DNA of 64,000 bases from the NCBI GenBank assembly GCA_021793015.1, contig JAJYTO010000001.1, forward strand, positions 7,738-71,737, in the 5' to 3' direction. Every line of letters starts with the position of its first letter. The stretch's first letter is position 1. The DNA is from Bacillota bacterium (GTDB lineage Bacteria > Bacillota > Bacilli > Alicyclobacillales > SLC66). The position numbers and the translations under genes are program-made. Of this stretch, positions 3,778 to 63,787 are shown one piece after another. The notes under the pieces are model-generated. The model was not told where the DNA came from, searched no databases, and worked only from the letters and a program-made list of their open reading frames with translations.

Positions 3778-4527
3778 CTATGTATCGTCATCCTGTCGCA
3801 ATTTACGCAGAGTCGTCCGTACGGTCTCCCCTGCATACCCCTTGCGATACAGATAACCAGCCACAAGTTCCCATCGCTTTTGATTCCGTTCCCTGTCGCT
3901 CCATGTGACAGCATCACGAGCGAGTTTCCTGTCAATCTCTGCAAGCTTACGACGACCGTCCTGAAAAGCCCCCGACGATTCGTCGTATCGACTGGCGCGA
4001 AGGGCCTGGCGCACCTGATCCGCCGAGATTCCGCGAGACAGCATGCGTTGGGCCAGGTCCCGCTTACTCCGCAGCGTTCCGCTGGAAAGCGTCTGTTCGA
4101 CATAACGTTCACTGAGCTCCATATCGTTCAGGAGACTCTGCTCCTTAAGCCAACGCACCACTTCCTCTGCCACCGAAGAATGGTACGAGTGTCTGATCAG
4201 ATGCCGCTTCACCTCGGTCTCCGTACGGGAGCGTCTAGCCAGATAGCCGAGGCTCAGTTCGCGCGCCTCAGACACTGTGTCCGCCCGCAAGAGTTCCTGG
4301 CGCACCGTTTCAGTAAACACCGTCCCGGCATGAATGTTCCGTTGCGACAAACTCATCGCGAGAAAAGGCCCGACGATCGTTCCGTCCGACAGATGCAGCA
4401 ACCGCCGCTGGGGATTTTCTGGATCGAGGTCCTGGCGCACAACCGTCAACTCGCCATGATCAGCCATCTCGACGATCACTCCATCCGAACACTCTGCCAC
4501 ACCCGCGTGACATGGCCTTGGGGACAT
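3778..4527 (-). CDS. recX: Recombination regulator RecX
   Basis: Repeated three-helix RecX-type segments (YLARRSRTETEVKRHL, LSRGISADQVRQAL, GYLYRKGYAGETV). Lies immediately downstream of recA. Start is uncertain: the ATG at 4527 lies inside the repeat terminus, and the ATG at 4467 (MADHGEL) is the alternative. Confidence 0.72.
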   Translation of the reverse strand: MSPRPCHAGVAECSDGVIVEMADHGELTVVRQDLDPENPQRRLLHLSDGTIVGPFLAMSLSQRNIHAGTVFTETVRQELLRADTVSEARELSLGYLARRSRTETEVKRHLIRHSYHSSVAEEVVRWLKEQSLLNDMELSERYVEQTLSSGTLRSKRDLAQRMLSRGISADQVRQALRASRYDESSGAFQDGRRKLAEIDRKLARDAVTWSDRERNQKRWELVAGYLYRKGYAGETVRTTLRKLRQDDDT

Positions 4528-4578
4528 GTGATGAACCCAATTTCGGCAGGCGCAGTGCGGACTTTATCACATGTCCCC
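4520..4578. mobile_element. MITE-like palindromic element, short (59-bp) copy 1
   Basis: GGGGACATGTGAT...ATCACATGTCCCC inverted termini. Aligns with both ends of the longer copies at 12793 and 40611, but the interior is deleted. Lies between the recA stop and recX. Confidence 0.6.
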
Positions 4579-4582
4579 TTGA

Positions 4583-5681: not shown

Positions 5682-5942
5682 CTATCCCGAAAATACGGTG
5701 GTCCCTGCCTGTCAGGACGGATCATGCATGCCGCTGCCGCTCAGACAGCCGCGGCCTAAAGGCCGCTAATACTCGCTGCAGCGGCATGCATGATCCGTCC
5801 TGGCGAGAGTCCCCCGCTGTCGCTAAACTCGCGACGGGCGCAATATATGTCTCCTCCCCGAGCGGGCCTTGCGCCTGTGAAAAAACTACTCGGCACCTTT
5901 TTCATTCCCTGATGGTGCTGCGAAGCAGCATGAATCTCTATC
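5682..5942. repeat. Modular intergenic repeat cluster R1 (hp2 hairpin, 3' half of hp1, T unit)
   Basis: Shares long near-identical stretches with the clusters at 20046, 30204, 53531 and 63369. Contains a 25-bp perfect inverted repeat (5713-5737 / 5778-5802). Confidence 0.9.
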
Positions 5943-5985: not shown

Positions 5986-6033
5986 GACATGTGCGATCGT
6001 ACCAAGCCGGCGACGCAGCCCCGCAAAACGCAC

Positions 6034-6070
6034 AAAACCGCGGCATGCGCAGAAGCGCCGCCGCGGTTTT
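6034..6070. terminator. Bidirectional intrinsic terminator-like hairpin (end of the helicase transcription unit)
   Basis: AAAACCGCGGC, a 15-nt loop, then GCCGCGGTTTT. A GC stem is flanked by A and T runs on both strands. Lies between the helicase stop and the candidate recA promoter. Confidence 0.5.
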
Positions 6071-6240
6071 CGCCGCGAATTCGATCACAGATCACAGGCA
6101 CAGTCTGCCAGCGCACCAACCCCACCAACCGCCCCGCGTCCGGAGAAGCGTCGTTCCCGCCCCGGAGACGGCGCCGCGCCTCTTGCATTCTGCAACCGGA
6201 CGCGGACAACGAAGACAGACGGGAAGAGACGCTGCCCAGC

Positions 6241-6336: not shown

Positions 6337-7946
6337 TCTTGGCGTCCGCCGCCGTAGCGGCGCGAGGAACCTCCCATGCCACGCGGTTTCGCGGGTTCCA
6401 AATTGACCCGATAGCCGTTAACCCGCGCCTGGCGCAGCGCCTCAAACACGAACGGCGCGGACTCCTCCTCGACCTCGACGAACGTGAACTTCTCAAAAAT
6501 GTCGATCTTGCCGACTGCGGCGCTGGGGATTCCCGACTCTTCCGAAATCATCCGCACCATATCGCCAGGGCCCATCCGCGCGCTGCGGCCAATATTGACA
6601 AAGAAGCGAACCATACCCGGCGCTCCGCCGGTGTCTCCGAAATCGTACTGACCCGTTTCTTCCGATTCAAGCTCACCGGCGGAAGCGAGCTTCAACGCCG
6701 CAGCGGCGAGATCAATCGGATCAAGTTCATCCACCAATTTGCCAAGCAGCGCTCGATAGTGCCCCAGCCCGCCCTCCTGAACGGTGGACTGCAGACGATC
6801 GCGCCAAATCTCCGCCTGCCGCTCCGCAACATCCGCCAGCGACGGCACCTCACGCCCCTCAATGGACGCCTTTGTTTCACGCTGAATCGTCTTTAGCAGC
6901 TTGAATTCGCGAGGCGTGACGAGGGTGATCGCCAAACCGCGCTTGCCGGCCCGGCCCGTCCGTCCGACGCGATGGACATACGCTTCAGTGTCCTGTGGAA
7001 TGTCGTAGTTCACAACATGGGTCACGTTGCCGACATCAATGCCGCGAGCCGCCACGTCAGTCGCGACCAAAAGCTCGATCTCGCCGCCGCGGAATTTCTT
7101 CATCACACGATCACGCTGCGCCTGGCTCAGGTCTCCATGAAGGCCGTCCGCCAGATACCCCCGCGATATCAGCGCTTCCGCCAGCTCATCGACGCCCCGC
7201 TTGGTGCGGCAGAAGATGATGCCGAGCGTGACGTCCTCGCTGTCGATGACCCGACACATGCTGTCCAGTTTTGTGCGCTCAAGAACCTTGTAGAACACCT
7301 GGTCGATCTGAGGCACGGTCATCTCGCCATGCGTCATCTGAACGTGTTCCGGCGCCTTCATGTAGCGGTTTGCGAGGCGCCGCACTTCAGGAGGAATGGT
7401 GGCGGAGAACAGCAGTGTCTGCCGTTCTGCGGGAATCGTTTGCAGAATCGATTCGATGTCCTCAATAAAGCCCATGTCCAGCATCTCGTCTGCTTCGTCC
7501 AGCACGACCGTCTGCACTTTGTCAAGCTTGAGTGTTCCGCGGCGCAGGTGGTCGAGAACCCGTCCTGGGGTCCCGATGACGATGTTGACCCCCTGTTCCA
7601 GCGCGCGAATCTGATGACCAATGGACTGTCCGCCATAAATGGGCAGCGTCCGCACACGCTTAAATTTTGCGATCTTGCGCATTTCACCGGCAACCTGAAT
7701 AGCCAGTTCGCGCGTGGGCAACAGTACGATCGACTGGACGTGGCGACCGGTTCCCGCAATCTCCACAAGCGGAATGCCAAACGCGGCCGTCTTTCCGGTT
7801 CCTGTCTGGGCCTGTCCGATGACATCCTTACCGTCAAGAATCAGCGGAATACACGTACTCTGAATCGGAGACGGCTCCTCATAGCCCATCTCATTGATCG
7901 CTTCCTGCAGTTTCTTACTCAAAGCAAATTCTAAAAAAGTCGTCAT
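6333..7946 (-). CDS. DEAD-box ATP-dependent RNA helicase (CshA/DeaD-like) with C-terminal RNA-binding domain and RGG-like tail
   Basis: Q motif GYEEPSPIQ, AQTGTGKTAAF, VLDEADEMLD, SAT and HRVGRTGRAG. C-terminal DbpA-like segment, ending in GMGGSSRRYGGGRQD. Confidence 0.9.
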   Translation of the reverse strand: MTTFLEFALSKKLQEAINEMGYEEPSPIQSTCIPLILDGKDVIGQAQTGTGKTAAFGIPLVEIAGTGRHVQSIVLLPTRELAIQVAGEMRKIAKFKRVRTLPIYGGQSIGHQIRALEQGVNIVIGTPGRVLDHLRRGTLKLDKVQTVVLDEADEMLDMGFIEDIESILQTIPAERQTLLFSATIPPEVRRLANRYMKAPEHVQMTHGEMTVPQIDQVFYKVLERTKLDSMCRVIDSEDVTLGIIFCRTKRGVDELAEALISRGYLADGLHGDLSQAQRDRVMKKFRGGEIELLVATDVAARGIDVGNVTHVVNYDIPQDTEAYVHRVGRTGRAGKRGLAITLVTPREFKLLKTIQRETKASIEGREVPSLADVAERQAEIWRDRLQSTVQEGGLGHYRALLGKLVDELDPIDLAAAALKLASAGELESEETGQYDFGDTGGAPGMVRFFVNIGRSARMGPGDMVRMISEESGIPSAAVGKIDIFEKFTFVEVEEESAPFVFEALRQARVNGYRVNLEPAKPRGMGGSSRRYGGGRQD

Positions 7947-12800: not shown

Positions 12801-12988
12801 GTGATAAACCAGAGTTTCGGCAGGCGCACTGCGGTCCATGTAGTGTTTGACTAAAGCCTCAAACACTAGGTTTGACTAAAGCCTCAAACACTAGGTTTGA
12901 CTAAAGCCTCAAACACTAGGTTTGACTAAAGCCTCAAACACTATGTTGGATCATAGCGCCTGCTGTGCGGACTTTATCACATGTCCTC
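12793..12988. mobile_element. MITE-like palindromic element, copy 2 (196 bp, with internal tandem expansion)
   Basis: Termini are GGGGACATGTGATAAA and TTTATCACATGTCCTC, with subterminal GCAGGCGC / GCGCCTGC. The central hairpin is TAGTGTTTGA-ctaaagcc-TCAAACACTA. Collinear with the copy at 40611. Confidence 0.65.
12851..12950. repeat. 4 x 25-bp perfect or near-perfect tandem repeat inside MITE-like copy 2
   Basis: The unit ctaaagcctcaaacactaggtttga repeats at 12851, 12876, 12901 and 12926. The copy at 40611 carries a single unit. Confidence 0.9.
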
Positions 12989-13767
12989 TAGCGTTCCATG
13001 ATGTCATGTTCCAGCCCTTCATAAGTGATTTCCTCATCCGGGGTGTTGCGAAGTTCAATGACGCGATCAAACAGTTCCCAGGAAAATTCCGACCGTCGCA
13101 CAAAGATGTCAGGATGCTCGATGATCTTGGGAGCGTTCAGCCGGAGGATGCGGCGGACAAGACGCAGATGCTCCTCGCTGCCCCTCATTGTCGACACGAT
13201 GCCGTCAATGATATACACATGATCGCCCAGATCAAATTCATCATCGTCCAGGTCCGTGCGAAGCGTTTGTTTTAACAGCGTGGAGGAAATGAAGGTCCAG
13301 CGTTTTCCTGCATACACACTGGCTGCGACAAGGGACTCTGTCTTGCCGACTCGCGGCATGCCGCGAATGCCCATGATCTGATTGCCGGGTCGCTTCAGAT
13401 GTTCGCCGATGAAGTCGACAAGAAGACCCAAATCGTCGCGAGTGAATTTATATGTTTTGCAATGCCCAATCTCCGTCTCCCGTTCAATGAGGCGCCCGTG
13501 ACGGAGCGCCAGACGATCCAACAGCGTCGGCGGCCGCAACGCGGTCACCGTGATATTGTCCACCTGACGCAACATATCCTGCAGAGTGTCAATCCGCGCG
13601 GTGTCTTCCACTTGCAGCAAGAAGCCGCGCCTGCGATCTTCGACGCCGCTCAGCTTGACGATGTTGATCGACAGCATTCCCAGCACTGAAGCGATATCAC
13701 CCAATAGCCCAAACCGATCCTTATAGATATAATACTCGAAATACCACTCACCCATGTGATCAGCCAT
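12988..13767 (-). CDS. Conserved uncharacterised protein, YmfK-like (ACT-like N-terminus plus P-loop GMPRVGKT)
   Basis: N-terminal ACT-like segment (KDRFGLLGDIASVLGMLSINIVKLSG) and a Walker-A-like IRGMPRVGKTES. Sits directly upstream of rodZ, as ymfK does in B. subtilis. Start set at ATG 13767. Confidence 0.6.
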   Translation of the reverse strand: MADHMGEWYFEYYIYKDRFGLLGDIASVLGMLSINIVKLSGVEDRRRGFLLQVEDTARIDTLQDMLRQVDNITVTALRPPTLLDRLALRHGRLIERETEIGHCKTYKFTRDDLGLLVDFIGEHLKRPGNQIMGIRGMPRVGKTESLVAASVYAGKRWTFISSTLLKQTLRTDLDDDEFDLGDHVYIIDGIVSTMRGSEEHLRLVRRILRLNAPKIIEHPDIFVRRSEFSWELFDRVIELRNTPDEEITYEGLEHDIMER

Positions 13768-13798: not shown

Positions 13799-13880
13799 TC
13801 TAACACCCCTATCCCAGAAAATCGCCGCAGGCGCATTTTCTTCCCGATTTTTGGTGGCGCGTCAGCGCCATGAAAGTCTA
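13799..13880. repeat. Modular intergenic repeat cluster R2 (single A unit)
   Basis: ctatcccagaaaatcgccgcaggcgcattttcttcccgatttttggtggcgcgtcagcgccatgaaagtctatcc is near-identical to the A units at 20046 and 63369. Confidence 0.9.
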
Positions 13881-13899
13881 TCCTGTGAAATCGAGTTGG

Positions 13900-20045: not shown

Positions 20046-20445
20046 CTATCCCGGAAAATCGCCGCAGGCGCATTTTCGACCCGGTTGTTGGTGGCGCGCA
20101 AGCGCCATGAATGTCTATCCCGGAAAATTGATGGTCCCTGCCGGTCGGAGTCGTATATTGCGCCCCTGCTCAGACACCGCTGTCGCTAAACTCGCGACGG
20201 GCGCAATATACGACTCCTCCCTGAGCAGGCCTTGCATTCGTGAAGAACACTGCCGACGCCTTTTTCATTCACTGATGGCGGCGCGCAACGGCATGCATGA
20301 TCCGTCCTGGCGGAAGCCCAGCGCTGTCGCTAAACTCGCGACGGGTGCAATACAGGACCCGTCCCCGAGCAGGCCTTGCATTCGCGAAAAAACTTTGCGG
20401 CGCCTTTTTCATCATGATGTTTGTGGCGGGCCTTGCATGGGTCTA
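20046..20445. repeat. Modular intergenic repeat cluster R3 (A unit, full hp1, T unit, 3' half of hp2, hp1 fragment, T unit)
   Basis: A unit at 20046-20120. The hp1 stem is GGAGTCGTATATTGCGCCC (20147-20165) paired with GGGCGCAATATACGACTCC (20199-20217). Other parts are collinear with R1, R4 and R6. Confidence 0.9.
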
Positions 20446-30203: not shown

Positions 30204-30482
30204 GTGAAAATACGGTGGCCCGTGCCGGTCGGAGTCATATATTGCGCCCCTGCTCAGACAGCGCTTCGCACAACTCGCGACGGTCGCAATATATGACTCC
30301 TCCCTGAGCGGGCTTTACGTCCGTGAAGAACGCTGTCGACGCCATTTTCATCCTGCTGATGGTGGCGCGTCAGCGCCATGACGGGCTGTCCCGGAAAATC
30401 GCCGCAGGCGCATTTTCGACTCGGTTGTTGGTGCTGCGCAAGTGAGATTTTGCTTCACAAAACTCAGGCATGACAGTCTATC
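30204..30482. repeat. Modular intergenic repeat cluster R4 (hp1, T unit, A unit with H insert)
   Basis: The hp1 stem is GGAGTCATATATTGCG (30231-30246) paired with CGCAATATATGACTCC (30285-30300). The A unit carries the insert gtgagattttgcttcacaaaactcag. Confidence 0.9.
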
Positions 30483-36792: not shown

Positions 36793-39700
36793 CTACTCGG
36801 CTTTAATGGCCTCCATCTTAAACGCTTCAACGATGTCGCCTTCCTTGATGTCATTGAACCGTTCAAGCGTAAACCCACATTCATACCCGAAGGACACTTC
36901 ACGCGCGTCATCCTTGAAACGCTTCAGAGAATCCAGCTTCCCTTCATACACGACCACCCCGCCGCGGATGACCCGAACATCGGCGTCACGGACCAATTTG
37001 CCGTCCTGCACCATGCCGCCGGCAATCGTTCCGACTTTCGACACCTTGAACAACTGCCGAACTTCCGCGCGGCCCAGCACAACTTCCTTGTAGACGGGAT
37101 CGAGCATGCCTCGCAGCGCAGCCTCAATCTCTTCGATCAGGTTGTAGATCACGCGATAGAGGCGGATGTCCACCTTCTCAGACTCTCCCATTTTGACCGC
37201 GTTTACTTCCGGGCGCACGTTGAATCCGATCACGATGGCGTTCGACGCAGAGGCGAGCAAAATGTCGGACTCCGTAATGGCCCCCACGCCATTGTGGATG
37301 ACGCGGATGCGCACACCGCTCACTTCGATTTTCTGCAGGGCTCCGAGCACCGCTTCCGCGGAGCCGTGAACATCCGCCTTCAGGATGAGATTGAGGTCCT
37401 TGACCTCACCCTCCTGAATCTGCTTATACAGATCATCGAGCGTGACGCGGGAGGTCACCCCGAGTTCTTCCGCGCGCTGGCGCATCGAACGGCGTTCCGC
37501 CACGAGGCGCCCCTGGCGTTCGTCGTCATACACCACAAACAGATCGCCGGCGCTTGGCACATCGGACAGACCCACGATCTCGACCGGCATGGACGGCTGC
37601 GCCTCCTTCACCCGCCGCCCACGGTCATTCACCATGGCCCGCACCTTGCCAAACGTGTGGCCCGCAACCACCACATCGCCGATGCGCAGGGTGCCGTTTT
37701 GAACGAGGATGGTCGCAACCGGGCCCCGCCCCTTATCCAACTGGGCCTCGACAACCGTTCCCCGCGCACGCATCGACAGACTGGCTTTCAGATCCGCCAC
37801 CTCCGCCACAAGCAGGATCATCTCCAACAATTCTTCGATCCCCTGCTTCTGCAGTGCAGACAGCGGCACGAAGATCGTATCGCCGCCCCACTCCTCCGCA
37901 ACGAGGCCGTGTTCGGTCAGCGCCTGCTTGATGCGATCCGGATCCGCTCCCGGTTTGTCCATCTTGTTGATGGCCACGATAATCGGCACGTTTGCCGCTT
38001 TGGCGTGGTTGATCGCCTCCACGGTTTGCGGCATCACTCCATCATCCGCGGCAACCACGAGAACTGTGATATCAGTGACCTGTGCGCCGCGCGCACGCAT
38101 CGTGGTGAATGCGGCGTGACCGGGAGTATCGAGAAACGTGATTCTCTTCTGGTTGATCTCGACCTGATAGGCGCCGATGTGCTGCGTGATGCCGCCCGCT
38201 TCGGAGGCCGTCACATTGGTCTGACGAATGGCGTCAAGCAGCGTGGTCTTGCCGTGATCGACGTGCCCCATGATCGTTACCACGGGCGGTCTGTGTTCAA
38301 GAGTCGCCTCGTCGATGTCTTCCGGAAGCATCTCCTCCGCTTCGAGATCGCGCGGCGCGTCCACGATAACCTCGGTGCCAAACTCCGCCCCCACCAACGC
38401 CATCGCGTCGGTGTCGAGCTCCTGGTTGATCGTCACCGGCATGCCGAGAAACAACAGTTTTTTAATAACCTCTGACGCCTCGCGACGAATATAATGGGCA
38501 AACTCGCTGACCGTCATAGGAGCGTCGACATGAACCTGTTTCGGGCCTTCAGGCGCCCTGACCACCATGGTCCGCCCCTGCGAGCGCGAGCGTGGAGGTT
38601 GCAGCTTGCGGTTATTCTCACGCCTGTCAGACAGATTCGAACGGTTGTTGCCTCCTCGGTCTCCGCCGCGTCTGCGCTGCTGGCCCTGGCCTCCCGTTTG
38701 CCCGCTGCGCGCCGCGTCGGACGAAGTCTCAAAACGCGGCGGCGCACTGGAAAATCCACCTCCTGATTCTCCAGAATAACGCGCAGGCCGCGATCCTCCT
38801 TGCGGTCCACGTCTGTTATCCCCGGAACGCGCCGGTGCAGCGCCGCCATACGAACCCGTCTGGGCAGATCGAGCCCCGCCGCCCTGATAGCCGCCCCGCG
38901 GTCCGCCCGCACCGCCTGCCGATTGCGGACGGCCACCTGCCGACGGCGGACGGCCACCTGCCGACGGCGGACGGCCTCCCGTCGATTGCGGACGGCCACC
39001 TGCCGATTGCGGACGGCCACCTGCCGATTGCGGACGGCCACCTGCCGATTGCGGACGATTTCCGTCGCCCGCTCCCTGTCCCGGACGGCGATCGTACCCG
39101 GCGGACGCAGGCCGCTGATTGTATCCACCACCCTGACTCGTCCGATTTGGCGCTCCCTGGCGCGGCGGATACTGTCCGGGGCGGCGATCCGCTCCGCCCG
39201 CGGCGCCTTCATACGGCCGCGGCGAGCGCTCTGCGCCGTCTCCGGTTGACCGTTCAGAATATCCGCCGCGAGCGTGGGCGCCCTGCGCCGTTCTGTCCCC
39301 CTCCGGCGAACCAGGCGCGCGTTCCCGAAATGGACGATCGTTGCGCCCGCCCTGATTGGTCGCGCCCTCCGACCGATAGCCGCCTCCATATGACCGCCGC
39401 TGATGCGTGGAGCCTGTGCGCGCCGAGTACGGTTGCGATGGTCGCGCACCCGTGATCTGCGCGGCGGCGTCATCGGCGTTTGCGGCGCCGCGCGCGCCCG
39501 GAACCGCCGCGGGCGGCGCCCATTCTGCGTCCTGGGCCGGCGGCGTTCTCCGCTCCGGCGCTTGTTCCGACGGTCCGCGCGTTTCCGTCTGCGTTGCATT
39601 GCCCTCTGTCGTATGCCCCGTAATAGTTCCCTCTCCCTCGCTTACACTCGCTGTCCGCGCGACTGTCCGGCGGTCCGGGTCGCGCTCCTGCTTGCGCTCC

Positions 39701-40479: not shown

Positions 40480-40610
40480 GGCCCATCCCCCCACGTGGAA
40501 ATCCAAACCAGTCTGTAATCTCCCGTATCCGCGTCTCCATGAACCCGGGTGTTCAGGAAACGCCGACGGTTCGCAGACGCCGGCCATGCTGGCCCAGTCA
40601 TGTTGGCCTA

Positions 40611-40732
40611 GGGGACATGTGATAAACTGAAATTTGGCAGGCGTGGCGCGGTACATATAGTGTTTGATTAAAGCCTCAAACACTATATGTGGGATCATAA
40701 CGCCTGCTGCGCGGACTTTATCACATGTCCTC
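40611..40732. mobile_element. MITE-like palindromic element, copy 3 (122 bp)
   Basis: GGGGACATGTGATAAA...TTTATCACATGTCCTC termini. The inner hairpin is ATATAGTGTTTGA-ttaaagcc-TCAAACACTATAT. Flanked by TA on both sides. Its last base is the first base of the nusA stop codon. Confidence 0.65.
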
Positions 40733-41817
40733 TAGTCATCCAGAAACGCGGCGCGGTCAAGATCCGCGAACACGGAGGATGTCCGTCCCATCTGGCTCTC
40801 GCTCTTGATGTCGATCTTCCAGCCTGTCAATTTGGCGGCCAGACGGGCATTTTGCCCCTCTTTGCCGATGGCGAGCGACAATTGGTAGTCAGGCACCACC
40901 ACCCGCGCCATTTTCTCGCCCTCAAACACCTCCACATCGACTACCTTCGCAGGCGATAGAGCGCTCGCCACGTAAATGGCGGGATCGTTGCTCCACTCGA
41001 TGACATCGATTTTTTCGCCCTGCAACTCGGCCACGATCGACTGAATTCGCATGCCCCTCGGCCCCACGCAGGCGCCGATCGGATCCACATCGTGGTTTCG
41101 TGAAAATACGGCAACCTTGGACCTTGCTCCGGCCTCGCGCGCCACCGCCTTGACCTCGACGATCCCGTCATAAATCTCCGGCACCTCAAGTTCCAGCAGG
41201 CGGCGCAACAGTCCCGGGTGAATGCGCGACAGGAGGATCTGCGGTCCCTTTGTCGTCTTTTCCACGCGCAAAATGAAGGCGCGGATGCGATCACCCAACT
41301 GCAGGCGTTCACCGGGGATCTGTTCGGACAGCGGCAGCAGACCCTCGGTCCGTTCCAGATCCACATATGAATAACGCCCGTCCTGTCGCGCGACCACACC
41401 CGACACGATGTCCTCTTCCAGATCCGCGTAGGCTGTGTAGATGATGCCGCGCTCCGCTTCCCTGATGCGCTGCGTCACAACCTGTTTGGCCGTCTGGGCC
41501 GCGATGCGGCCAAATTCTCGCGGCGTAACCTCAAGTTCCACGATGTCGCCCAGGCGATAGTTTGGATTCATTTCCATGGCGGCGTCCAGCGACAACTCCA
41601 GACGCGGATCGTGCGGACTCTCCACCACGGTCTTGCGGGCGTACACAAGAATGTTTCCCGACAGTCTGTCGACTTCGACGCGAACATTTTGCGCGGAACT
41701 GAAATTCCGCTTGTACGCCGAGATGAGCGCCGCCTCAATCGCCTCGATCAGCACACCGCTGCTGATGCCGCGCTCCCGTTCGAGTTGGTCCAGCGCTTCG
41801 ATAAAGTCCGCATTCAT
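40732..41817 (-). CDS. nusA: Transcription termination/antitermination factor NusA
   Basis: N-terminal domain [19 protein letters not shown], an S1 domain and two KH domains ([34 protein letters not shown]). Start set at ATG 41817. Confidence 0.93.
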
Positions 41818-52731: not shown

Positions 52732-53385
52732 TTACTGTTTAACCTGCGCCATCACTTCCGCAACAAAATCATCCTGCCGCCGTTCGATCCCTTCGCCCAT
52801 CTCGTAGCGGACAAATCGACGAATGGAGATATTCTCCCCAATCTTGGCGATCTTCGAGGCGACATGGGCGGCGACCGTGACGGACGGATCCTTGACGAAC
52901 GGCTGATCAAGCAGGCACTGCTCGCGCAGAAATTTATCGACCTTGCCAGCCACGATCTTATCCACAATGTGCGCCGGCTTGCCCTCATTCAAAGTCTGCT
53001 GGCGGAAAATCTCGGTCTCACGCTGCACGATATCGCCGGCAATATCCTCGCGCCGCAGATACTCCGGCCTGGAGGCGGCAATATGCATGGCAATGTCGCG
53101 ACACAAGGCGCGAAACTCGTCGGTTTTGGCCACAAAGTCCGTCTCGCAGTTGACCTCGACAAGCACACCGATGCGGCCGCCCCCGTGAATGTATGACTCG
53201 ACGACACCCTCGGCGGCCACTCTTCCCGCTTTTTTCGCCGCCGACGCCAGGCCCTGCTCCCTCAGGAACTCAATGGCTTTCTCCATGTCGCCGCCTGTCT
53301 CTGTCAAGGCCTTTTTGCAGTCATTCACTCCGGCTCCCGTTTTTTCGCGCAACTGCTTTACCGCTTCTATCGTTACTGTTGCCAT
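52732..53385 (-). CDS. tsf: Elongation factor Ts (short form)
   Basis: [30 protein letters not shown]-like N-terminus. 217 aa from ATG 53385. Confidence 0.93.
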
Positions 53386-53530
53386 GTTCAGTCCGCTCCT
53401 TATGCTGCTTGTATGTACCCAATCGGCCGCCACGGCAGCGGCATCGCCGTCGTTTCAAAAATATGGTGCAGGCAAGGCGACCGCCGCTTGACTCCACCGC
53501 GCTATGCCCACCCTGCGTCTTTGAGTCAAT

Positions 53531-53880
53531 CTGCCGCGAAATATCGCCGCAGGCGTATTTTTCTTCCCGGTTGTTGGTGGCGCGAAGCGCTGAGATTTTG
53601 CTTCGCAAAACTCAGGCATGAAAGTCTATCCCGAAACCAACATGGCCTGACGGCCACCGCCAACCATGGCAACATCCCAGACGCGCTTGGCAAGTTGCCG
53701 TATAAAAATAACGATGGTCCCTGCCGGTCGGGATCATATACTGTGCCGCCGCTTGAACATGTCTGCGCCAAACTCGCGACGGGCACAGTATACGACCCCG
53801 GGCGAGCGGGCTTTCATCCCCTGAAAAACGGCGCTGGCGCTTTTTCAGGGAATGGCGCCGCGCAGCGCCATGGGGGGTCT
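53531..53880. repeat. Modular intergenic repeat cluster R5 (A unit with H insert, unique spacer, divergent hp1, T-like unit)
   Basis: The A unit with the H hairpin CTGAGaTTTTGC-ttc-GCAAAACTCAG is at ~53531-53635. The hp1 variant is at 53731-53797. The T-like unit has CCCTGAAAAA...TTTTTCAGGG and ATGGCGC...GCGCCAT stems. Confidence 0.85.
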
Positions 53881-59848: not shown

Positions 59849-61316
59849 GCCGTTCACCTCCCGTGAAGCATGAGGAGAGAAAATCGGAATCAACGACCAT
59901 GATGTCGTCAGGCACGCGCTGACCTGTTGTCAGATACGACAATGGTTTTTGCAACGTGTGTGCGGCAGCCAGACAGAGGGTTGGCAGAACCGTCTCGTCG
60001 AGCTTTGTGAACAGCAGGGCGTCGTAGCCGACGGAGGCGAGCACTTCAGCGACCTCCTTTGCTTCCAGCCAACGTGACGACAGGCTGAGCACCAGGTATC
60101 TGAGATCGATGGATATACCCCCCAACAGCGTGTCGATCTCCTGCGCATGTGAGTGATCAAGAAATGCCCTGCCCGTTGTGTCCACAAATACGAGATCGAG
60201 CTTCGACATGCTGTGCAGGCGTTCCTCCACTTCCGCAGCCGACCGGGCCACAGCAAGCGGTATACTTAGAATGTCTGCGTACGTCTTGAGTTGCTGCACA
60301 GCCGCCATGCGAAATGTGTCCACGGTCAGCAATCCCACCGATCGCCCGTCGCGCAGCTTCGCCTGGGCGGCCAATTTGGCGATCGTCGTGGTCTTGCCCA
60401 CTCCGGTGGGACCAAAGAACGCCACAACTCGGTCACTGCCGCCAATCGTTCTGACAGGTCCCGTTTCTTGCAGCAGAGTCCGGGAAAACCGAGTCAGCGC
60501 GGCATCCACCGCCCTAGGGTCGCGAATATCCGAGTGCGCCGCCTCGGTCATGAGAAAACGCTCCAGAAGCGGAGCAGGCAACTGCGCGTGCATGAGTCGT
60601 TCGACTACGCGCCCCAACGCCGTGCGATCCAGACCAGGAAGGCCGCCCGGCCCAATCAGCGCAGTGAGCAGGCTGCGGAGATCGCGCAGTTCACGCTCCA
60701 CCGCGACGGCGCCAGCGCCCGTTGCACCCGCCGCCAGACCGTCGCCGCTGACCGCGTATCCCGCGCTGGACGCATGGCCGACGACGACCCGCTTCCCCTT
60801 GGCATCCGCTGGCGCGTGTCCGGCTGTGGGGGCGCGTTCCGGGTGAAGCGCCGCAGCTCGTCCGCCTGCCGGCGCGCTTTCCCGGTGAACCGCCGCAGCT
60901 CGTCCGCCTGCCGGCGCGCTTTCCCGGTGAACCGCCGCAGCTCGTCCGCCTGCTGGCGCGCTTTCCGGGTGAAGCGCCGCAGCTCGTCCGCCTGCCGGCG
61001 CGCTTTCCCGGTGAACCGCCGCAGCTCGTCCGCCTGCCGGCGCGCTTTCCCGGTGAAGCGCCGGAAATCGTGGATCCGGTCCGAGCGACGCCTGAAAACC
61101 CGGTGATGCGCCCAGGGCGTTCACGGGCGCTTCTCTGGCGTAATCGTCATACTCGCGCCCCGCCACGACTTCGTATACCTTCACTCCGAACAGTCCAGAC
61201 CAGCCAACGGCCCGAATTTTCCGCTTTGACAGAATAACCGCCTCAGATCCCAATTCCGCCTTGATGACAGTGAGCACCTGAGGCAAGGACTTGGCGACGT
61301 AACGCTTGATAAACAC
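59832..61316 (-). CDS. flhF: Flagellar biosynthesis SRP-type GTPase FlhF with a repeat-expanded B domain
   Basis: N-terminal MFIKRYVAKSLPQVLTVIK and an NG domain with FFGPTGVGKTTT and DTTGR. The internal 14-aa repeat HRESAPAGGRAAAV occurs ~5 times. Confidence 0.9.
   Translation of the reverse strand: MFIKRYVAKSLPQVLTVIKAELGSEAVILSKRKIRAVGWSGLFGVKVYEVVAGREYDDYAREAPVNALGASPGFQASLGPDPRFPALHRESAPAGGRAAAVHRESAPAGGRAAALHPESAPAGGRAAAVHRESAPAGGRAAAVHRESAPAGGRAAALHPERAPTAGHAPADAKGKRVVVGHASSAGYAVSGDGLAAGATGAGAVAVERELRDLRSLLTALIGPGGLPGLDRTALGRVVERLMHAQLPAPLLERFLMTEAAHSDIRDPRAVDAALTRFSRTLLQETGPVRTIGGSDRVVAFFGPTGVGKTTTIAKLAAQAKLRDGRSVGLLTVDTFRMAAVQQLKTYADILSIPLAVARSAAEVEERLHSMSKLDLVFVDTTGRAFLDHSHAQEIDTLLGGISIDLRYLVLSLSSRWLEAKEVAEVLASVGYDALLFTKLDETVLPTLCLAAAHTLQKPLSYLTTGQRVPDDIMVVDSDFLSSCFTGGERHARSG
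60842..61065. repeat. ~5.3 x 42-bp in-frame tandem repeat inside flhF
   Basis: ggtgaa(g/c)cgccgcagctcgtccgcctgccggcgcgctttccc units run head to tail with only a few substitutions. Confidence 0.9.
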
Positions 61317-63368: not shown

Positions 63369-63787
63369 CTATCCCGAAATATCGCCGCAGGCGTATATTT
63401 TTCCCAGTTGTTGGTGGCGCGTGAGCGCCATGAAGTCTATCCCCGAAAATCGCCGCAGGCGCATTTTCTTCCCGGTTGTTGGTGGCGCAAAGCGCCATGA
63501 AGTCTATCCCGAAAATACGGTGGTCCCTGCCTGCCAGGACGGATCATGCATGCCGCTGCCGCTCAGACAGCCGCGGCCCAAGGGCCGCTAATACTCGCTG
63601 CAGCGGCATGCATGATCCGTCCTGGCGGGAGTCCAGCGCTGTCGCTAAACTCGCGACGGGCGCAATATATGACTCCTCCCTGAGCGAGCTTTACGGCCGT
63701 GTAAAACTTCGCGACGTCTTTTCATCCTGCTGACGATGCCGCGCAGCGGTGAGATTTTGCTTCCCAAAACTCAGGCATGGCCGTCTA
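63369..63787. repeat. Modular intergenic repeat cluster R6 (two tandem A units, hp2, 3' half of hp1, T unit with H insert)
   Basis: A units at ~63369-63442 and ~63436-63509 are joined by gtctatcccc-gaaaat. The hp2 25-bp perfect stem is 63535-63559 / 63600-63624. Collinear with R1. Confidence 0.9.

Follow-up and report, generated by a model that had tools for sequence, protein, structure and literature searches.

How do long, hairpin-rich repeats come to stand between genes that are normally tightly linked? The question is raised by a 64,000-nt stretch of DNA (hereafter the window) from an uncultured, acid-loving bacterium, in which a sequence-only reading had described six co-oriented clusters of repeat modules. 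Reading of the region and a repeat search confirmed that the six clusters exist: all lie on the + strand and together make up ∼1.8 kb, or 2.8% of the window, at a density of one per ∼10 kb. All coding genes of the window are on the - strand, so that every cluster is antisense to its operon and the mRNAs carry the reverse complement of the units. We argue that the clusters probably belong to a lineage-restricted family of small, non-coding, non-autonomous repeats that spreads by insertion, an interspersed mosaic of the BOX or BIME type. The sequence-only reading came through all four of the refuting tests it had named, on known families (Rfam and the plasmid, phage and viral collections), on copies elsewhere, on covariation and on orthologous spacers. 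Cluster coordinates below are window positions, and L-numbers denote retrieved loci from other assemblies.

The clusters are recent insertions at compact operon junctions within a small clade, rather than conserved leaders. The rpsB-tsf spacer measures 579 nt in the window vs 68, 57, 97, 35, 174 and 303 nt in six relatives whose Tsf is 84-94% identical, and the flhB-flhA spacer is ∼430 nt long vs 54, 53, 45 and 30 nt in relatives. Searches with nhmmer and blastn found no module at the syntenic rpsB-tsf and flhB-flhA loci of relatives, and the six related species do not have these sequences at the orthologous sites. The 303-nt spacer, that of L033, holds an unrelated element, a MITE (miniature transposable element with inverted repeats). 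In the window species a cluster follows the 3′ end of typA (L003), whereas JA6.bin5 (L022), at 86-88% identity, has an empty site of ∼20 nt there. Between JA6.bin5 and JA1.bin52, which are 93-95% identical, there is one whole unit of difference at a shared site, and orthologous copies can differ by a compensatory double change (AAAAAT/ATTTTT to AAATAT/ATATTT). Strains of the window species (≥99.8% identical) have the same clusters.

These comparisons bear on the view that the clusters are mainly host RNA elements in polycistronic mRNAs, acting as stabilisers, processing sites or attenuators that set the ratios of neighbouring genes. The operons that hold the window clusters are indeed conserved and highly expressed (rpsB-tsf, pnp, rnj, recA, flhBA), and REP, BIME, ERIC and BOX repeats are reported, in a passage of PMC3049150, to affect the fate of mRNA. 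However, the same operons do without clusters in the six relatives, and the clusters are thus dispensable there. Since the corresponding sites of sister species are free of clusters, and in view of the results on orientation, folding and termination given below, we regard a primary role as host RNA as improbable.

The part of the rpsB-tsf spacer that the relatives share (window 53385-53500; L059 5104-5226) has a conserved hairpin and, after it, a T-run (GGTG.AG...C.CACC ATATTTTTGA). This resembles an attenuator or terminator that was ancestrally present upstream of tsf.

Comparison of copies bore out the modules named earlier (A, T, H, hp1 and hp2) and showed that a single frame unites them. 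In every unit, CTA is followed by TCCCGAAAAAT, a cargo position, (A)TTTTC-TTCCCGGTTGTTGG, hairpin 2 and the right end CATGAAAGT, after which CTA comes again. The cargo position is closed by a stem of an A-run and a T-run, and hairpin 2 is a short GC hairpin, TG-GCGC-N3-4-GCGC-CA, that leads into TGAAAGT and the final CTA. The A unit (∼75 nt, two hairpins) has as its cargo a 4-bp mini-hairpin, CGCC-GCA-GGCG, and in the T variant the closing stem is GAAAAA/TTTTTC. In large units the cargo is either hp1 (70 nt, with a 19-bp stem) or hp2 (90 nt, with a perfect stem of ∼26 bp). The two are homologous: their stems have no sequence in common, and the apex of both keeps GCTCAGACA, a small internal hairpin and A(A/T)ACTCGC. 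The almost invariant H module, TGAGATTTTGC-TTC-GCAAAACTCA, always substitutes for the 3′ arm of hairpin 2. Within each cluster all units are direct and joined head to tail, with tandem periods of 67-69 nt and a unit-unit junction of GTCTATCCCGAAAAAT in an alignment of 39 copies. The A-core pattern GAAAWWTCGCCGCAGGCGYATWTT, with at most 2 mismatches, is matched six times in the window, always on the + strand, vs 0.00 expected in shuffles, and the hp1 apical motif AACTCGCGACGGKCRCART also has 6 matches vs 0.03 expected.

Units are inserted at short sites resembling CTA. Often such a site is the TAG that ends the upstream gene, and in three cases (rnj, flhB and typA) the terminal CTA is the complement of this stop codon. 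There are no terminal inverted repeats, the left end TCCCGAAAAATCGCC being unrelated to the reverse complement of the right end, ACTTTCATGGCGC; direct repeats of CTA(TCC), 3 to 16 nt long, lie at both borders of a unit. These flanking direct repeats, of 3-4 nt and sometimes longer, carry target-specific variants, as target duplications would. Within a copy, deviations shared by the two terminal repeats were observed 8 times vs 1.4 expected. Among 28 independent clusters, a right 3-mer other than CTA repeats the left one in 5 cases and parallels it in 1, and shared deviant 3-mers number 5 vs 0.3 expected (p<1e-5). At cluster 5, the alignment of the flanks with those of the empty L059 site ends exactly at the single CTGC, which borders the window cluster on both sides.

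The stems of the units are maintained by compensatory changes, and this covariation, proposed earlier from a few variants, persists once all copies are aligned. In 13 copies of hp1, with 19 pairs, 93% of the cells are paired and 9 pairs have changed on both sides; none of 500 shuffles reached this level, and slid controls gave 31-46% pairing. The A unit (39 copies) is 97.9% paired with 3 covarying pairs. Its hairpin 2 alternates between GGCGC/GCGCC, GCTGC/GCAGC and GCCGC/GCGGC, and its A/T stem between AAAAT/ATTTT and AAATAT/ATATTT, so that the variants picked out by the sequence-only reading (TGGCGC/GCGCCA vs TGCTGC/GCAGCA; AAAAT/ATTTT vs AAATAT/ATATTT) are real. The core of hairpin 1 was set by the search pattern, and its invariance is therefore uninformative. 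The 8 copies of hp2 differ at many stem positions while pairing is kept and the apex is conserved.

That hairpins are kept by compensatory change would also suit a host RNA function; the lack of a strand asymmetry speaks against it. In hp1, G-T and A-C mismatches number 6 vs 9, which favours neither strand; the raw folding energy is better on the - strand by 4.5 kcal/mol, and this difference is gone after composition control (p=0.1-0.18). We therefore drew no conclusion on the strand of action from wobble pairs or folding energy. A 20-codon ATG...TAG frame on the mRNA strand, which could have coupled translation of the neighbouring genes, is kept in only ∼18 of 31 copies, so that a mini-ORF (open reading frame) was rejected, and the MIRU-like arrangement of a small ORF per unit that overlaps the stop and start codons of its neighbours was not found. 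A consensus terminator scan of 53.3-64 kb, in which a GC-rich stem of ≥5 bp with a T-run after it counts as a terminator, gave 8 terminator-like sites vs 9.7 expected and did not call hairpin 1. Being at chance level, it led us to reject a terminator function, which we retain just as a possible cause of the orientation bias. A pseudoknot or alternative helix of CTGCTCAG with CTGAGCAG was likewise unsupported (78% paired, zero double changes).

The sequence-only reading had described the clusters as co-oriented and intergenic. Orientation is uniform in the window (6 of 6) and only biased elsewhere: outside the window, copies between co-directional genes are antisense in 14 cases and sense in 4. 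An orientation bias would suit both host RNA elements and units moved by a single-strand transposase. A host RNA role is at odds with the 7 copies in convergent spacers, the 6 in divergent spacers and one copy inside an ORF. As to a link of orientation with replication, the GC skew of the element strand is mixed across loci. As to position, all six window clusters lie between genes, but in both JA genomes one A unit interrupts, in frame, an ORF for a NuoC/NuoD-like hydrogenase large subunit (L009 5570-5645; L026 2607-2682). Both sides of this unit score as coding. Substitutions by codon position are 3, 5 and 1 within the unit, with no excess at the third position, and 15, 14 and 62 downstream in the ORF, where the third position prevails. 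We count this in-frame copy as selfish behaviour.

How might the units move? We propose that the preferred target, CTA followed by TCC, would resemble the left terminus of the element itself, and for that reason new units would tend to land at the edges of resident ones and build co-oriented head-to-tail chains. The composition of arrays would then differ between close relatives. An enzyme acting in trans and encoded elsewhere in the genome may read the shape of the hairpins together with the constant motifs. Between co-transcribed genes, selection would keep mainly the orientation in which the T-rich tail TATTTTTCTT after hairpin 1 lies on the non-transcribed strand, and such selection on transcripts could give rise to the antisense bias.

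Several observations weigh against this proposal. About 10 copies have a deviant left 3-mer and nevertheless the consensus CTA on the right, which makes the duplication signal partial, and homology on the right-hand side fades at variable points. Around the L003 cluster that follows typA, 19 nt of the typA 3′ end stand as a direct repeat; since this was seen at just one site, we rejected long flanking duplications as a rule. The terminator scan fails to support a terminator-based account of the orientation bias. The lack of terminal inverted repeats leaves a classical DDE/MITE route without support. Pfam searches of the ORFs found no transposase in the window, in keeping with the earlier reading: ∼40 of ∼53 ORFs could be annotated, all as housekeeping genes. 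A regular-expression search detected no Y1/RAYT motif in the window and the loci retrieved by then (∼0.4 Mb). The copies are known from contigs of metagenome-assembled genomes (MAGs) and from metagenome loci.

Pfam searches of ORFs in gene-poor gaps beside clusters returned ordinary genes plus one IscB-like remnant. This C-terminal fragment (L019 6400-7101), which covers the HNH and RuvC-III region and has an in-frame stop, finds its best sequence matches in the PDB in TbaIscB and HfmIscB and ends 26 nt before the repeat cluster at 7127-7454. When all loci (∼0.55 Mb) were searched with it by tblastn, it was found only in L019. A composite transposon in L051 was considered and rejected; two inverted units lie 3.3 kb apart there, but the genes between them are ordinary.

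The IscB-like pseudogene, a cargo of the IS200/IS605 superfamily, would agree with a rival mechanism in which a single-strand transposase of the HUH (Y1) class, be it a RAYT or the TnpA of IS200/IS605, acts on the units as REP- or PATE-like substrates. In such a model the two subterminal hairpins would be recognised, the left CTA would be the target and the right CTA the element's own cleavage motif, and arrays would form since the right end recreates the target. The absence of terminal inverted repeats fits this model, as do the hairpin near each unit end, the stems that covary equally well on either strand, and the left 3-mer that varies while the right is mostly consensus CTA, as it should be were only the left one flanking sequence. 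However, the Y1/RAYT motif is absent from the sequence searched, there is no GTAG/CGTC tag, the units are direct repeats rather than inverted doublets, and the mixed GC skew is not what the model leads one to expect. Moreover, in 5 of 6 cases a deviant right 3-mer copies the left, which a duplication-free HUH mechanism does not predict, and the IscB neighbour is a single case. A single-strand route of the HUH type is possible but not favoured, and we judge it unlikely.

It is also conceivable, though we think it unlikely, that hp1 and hp2, with stems of any sequence and invariant apical motifs (GCTCAGACA and A(A/T)ACTCGC), are the recognition or guide module of an undescribed mobilisation system, a structure-specific or RNA-guided recombinase, that integrates units at CTA/TCC and duplicates a few bases. 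If this were true, it would account jointly for the absent inverted repeats, the direct terminal repeats, the self-targeting arrays and the swapping of cargo, and the family would then be the non-autonomous counterpart in a new class of mobile elements of bacteria.

A third possibility dispenses with a dedicated enzyme, the units being spread and rearranged by replication slippage, by template switching at CTATCC microhomology and by ectopic recombination or gene conversion between clusters. Boundaries that fade at variable points in the junction sequence, direct repeats of variable length and unit-sized indels bordered by repeated sequence are in line with it, and the compensatory double change between orthologues looks like conversion from another copy. 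On the other hand, slippage alone would hardly scatter units over dozens of unrelated sites that share one short target and place them exactly at stop codons, and the strict conservation of the apical motifs against free stems suggests recognition by a factor. We consider that an enzyme-free origin has a decidedly poor chance of being right, and the preferred reading remains insertion of a non-autonomous repeat.

In L003 (GCA_027324545.1), the contig leaves the rpsB cluster within an A unit and continues at the typA locus (4031-4110, 6008-6192). This switch is either a chimeric assembly or a recombination between units. Recombination of this kind would suit the enzyme-free account, whereas a chimeric join would suit the suspicion that the clusters themselves are artefacts, produced when a metagenome contig was assembled with chimeric joins or with repeats collapsed; contigs of the window species often end inside clusters (L038, L057). 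Such an artefact is extremely improbable. Clusters 3 and 5 are reproduced base for base in independent assemblies from different samples (L001, L002, L055, L056), and the family occurs in other genomes and metagenomes too.

The positions and parts of the clusters in the window are collected in Table 1. Pfam annotation confirmed the flanking gene pairs given earlier; they had been listed in the reverse order of their coordinates.

Table 1. Repeat clusters of the window and their parts. Neighbouring genes are named by Pfam; the 397-aa ORF beside cluster 2 has no Pfam match.
Feature	Coordinates	Strand	Location	Composition and ends
Cluster 1	5682..5942	+	deaD/recA spacer	One large unit, ends in CTCTATC
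Cluster 1, hp2	5713-5802
Cluster 1, hp1 right half	5826-5844			Apical motif AACTCGCGACGG
Cluster 1, T hairpin	∼5881-5905			A/T-closed
Cluster 1, hairpin 2	∼5912-5926			TGCTGC/GCAGCA variant
Cluster 2	13809..13885	+	397-aa ORF/DUF3388 spacer	Solo A unit between CTATCC direct repeats
Cluster 3	20046..20445	+	rnj/tepA spacer
Cluster 3, A unit	20046-20122
Cluster 3, B unit	20147-20217			Coordinates of the hp1 stem-loop
Cluster 3, second large unit	20285-20445			5′-truncated
Cluster 3, last CTA	20443-20445			Complement of rnj stop TAG
Cluster 4	30204..30482	+	pnp/ylxY spacer	B unit, then A unit with H
Cluster 4, hp1 of B unit	30231-30300			Followed by hairpin 2
Cluster 4, H of A unit	30443-30467
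Cluster 5	53531..53880	+	rpsB/tsf spacer	A unit with H, unique linker, B unit with hp1
Cluster 5, H of A unit	53590-53616
Cluster 5, unique linker	53637-53700
Cluster 5, hp1 of B unit	53730-53799
Cluster 5, flanks				CTG(C) on either side; single CTGC at the empty orthologous site in L059
Cluster 6	63369..63787	+	flhB/flhA spacer	Tandem A units, then large unit
Cluster 6, A units	63369-63444 and 63437-63512
Cluster 6, hp2 of large unit	63534-63625			Followed by hp1 right half
Cluster 6, H of large unit	63750-63774
Cluster 6, terminal CTA	63785-63787			Complement of flhB stop
Cluster 6, left CTAT				Abuts flhA ribosome-binding site (TAGGAGG, - strand)

The window species is known from the MAGs GCA_027421465.1 and GCA_027324545.1 and from ENA assemblies. 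Judged by Tsf, the named organisms nearest to it are Sulfoacidibacillus thermotolerans (88%), S. ferrooxidans (84%) and Ferroacidibacillus (82%). Copies occur beyond the window. In the window species itself there is the one at typA (L003). A scan with the exact A-core pattern over one genome per species found two related MAG species, JA6.bin5 (13 loci) and JA1.bin52 (10 loci), together with one chance match and, in Alicyclobacillus sp. SP_1, a 44-nt fragment, and the same exact scan of JGI metagenomes gave 15 loci from two samples. Since the exact pattern matches only 2 of the 6 window copies, these locus counts are lower bounds. Profile searches of the retrieved DNA brought up ∼60 A units and ∼30 large ones. 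The family is spread over at least 3 species-level genomes and 2 metagenomes.

In Alicyclobacillus, another genus, the fragment (L007 6891-6934) is a lone match to the left half of the A unit, CCCGAAATATCGCCGCAGGCGTATTTTCTTCCCG. It may be a relic or come from a transfer, or it may hint that hairpin 1 originated from an ordinary terminator-like hairpin.

The family appears to be undescribed, as checked against Rfam and against plasmid, phage and viral collections. Rfam gave no match in the whole window at gathering thresholds, so that the modules are not an Rfam family; at E<=1, clusters 6 and 3 match generic long-hairpin families alone, far below threshold. The modules had no match in the plasmid, phage and IMG/VR viral collections, and a full-text search of the literature on Sulfoacidibacillus, Acidibacillus and Ferroacidibacillus together with repeats returned nothing relevant.

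The sequence-only reading had likened the clusters to REP/BIME or BOX elements. The modularity is indeed BOX-like, while the likeness to REP/BIME is functional only, without inverted doublets or a GTAG/CGTC tag and with no RAYT found in the ∼0.4 Mb searched. BOX of Streptococcus is built as boxA-boxB(n)-boxC, with boxD, boxE and boxF too in S. suis (PMC3049150). Like the family described here, BOX elements are modular composite repeats of a Firmicute with variable tandem internal modules, strongly base-paired when folded; they are intergenic, their orientation follows coding bias, the length of their clusters varies between strains, and they can modify gene ends (PMC3049150). The resemblance is architectural, however, there being no sequence likeness as judged by the description of BOX in that paper, and BOX has boxA/boxC terminal inverted repeats related to ISSpn2, whereas the units here have direct terminal repeats (PMC3049150). 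The variable part also differs, being a nested cargo hairpin with conserved apical motifs here and tandem boxB in BOX. By its modularity and by an orientation that follows genes, BOX is the closest analogy, a better one than REP/BIME (PMC3049150). As palindromes outside genes that form mosaics, REP, BIME and REPIN come nearest (PMC2817692, PMC3116915).

REP units are palindromes of 20-40 nt with a conserved GTAG or CGTC at one end (PMC3733652), and in BIMEs and REPINs they alternate in orientation as doublets (PMC2817692, PMC3116915). Their genomes also encode a RAYT (Y1 transposase), whose gene typically has REPs on its flanks. The family shares with them short GC-rich extragenic palindromes arranged in mosaics, a high copy number within a lineage, compensatory change in stems and the lack of a transposase inside the element. 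It differs in that its units are all head to tail, larger, made of two to four different hairpins and flanked by short duplications, and no RAYT was found in the window or the ∼0.4 Mb of loci searched. In the 39-copy alignment the GTAG/CGTC tag is absent from hairpins 1 and 2, and GTAG occurs only where the flank supplies the stop codons of rnj and flhB.

Other known systems share single traits with the family. MITEs such as Correia elements, RUP and the second repeat family of the window, described below, are likewise small and non-coding, with short TA-containing targets, short direct repeats and presence or absence among relatives, but the present family is without terminal inverted repeats, is GC-rich and builds co-oriented arrays. 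PATEs, which derive from IS200/IS605 elements and depend on TnpA, have subterminal hairpins and no inverted ends, and their insertion, 3′ of a short fixed motif, makes no duplication. The lack of inverted ends, the subterminal hairpins at both ends, the insertion beside a short specific motif and the fixed polarity are all found here, whereas a target-like duplication is seen in the family, no TnpA was found in the ∼0.4 Mb searched and orientation is not tied to GC skew. The Rickettsia palindromic elements offer a parallel to the in-frame copy tolerated within a protein-coding gene (L009/L026), but only this one case is seen, all else in the family being intergenic, and the two are not homologous. 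Integron attC sites, which have RYYYAAC/GTTRRRY cores and an adjacent intI and attI, likewise form co-oriented head-to-tail arrays through a short conserved junction and are imperfect palindromes read by shape, with stems free to vary. They differ in that the family has no GTTRRRY core and no integrase nearby, its clusters are scattered in housekeeping operons, and conservation is at the apex, not at the base as in attC. The family is a BOX/BIME-like mosaic repeat, a new example of "junk-like" mobile repeats and no new kind of biology.

The family is young, empty sites surviving in sister species. Its youth, density, constant frame, swappable hairpin cargo and co-varying flanks make the insertion mechanism experimentally approachable in a Gram-positive lineage, and the elements would mark a new transposition route if the mobilising enzyme proved to be new. 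The clusters lengthen the spacers of core operons (rpsB-tsf, pnp, rnj, recA, flhBA) and may alter operon polarity, the family can enter coding sequence in frame, and metagenome assemblies of these acidophiles are broken or wrongly joined at clusters.

We would also like to mention other repeats seen along the way. A second, unrelated family in the window is a classical MITE with terminal inverted repeats of ∼19 nt, CTAG(R)GGACATGTGATAAA, at 40604-40742, 12807-12998 and 4513-4579. The copy at 12.8 kb has four internal 25-nt tandem repeats (GTTTGACTAAAGCCTCAAACACTAG) and the 4.5-kb copy is internally deleted. A relative of this MITE at L033 9697-9830, with TAG/CTAG flanks, is the one that fills the rpsB-tsf spacer of a sister species, and it is absent there in L059. 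In flhF (window 60764-61099) there is an in-frame 42-nt tandem repeat of at least 6 copies; the same-species contig L038 is 168 nt shorter, which equals four units, and this reflects either copy-number variation or assembly collapse. Finally, infB has an in-frame 21-nt tandem repeat of ∼7 copies (window 38891-39078) in the N-terminal region of IF-2.

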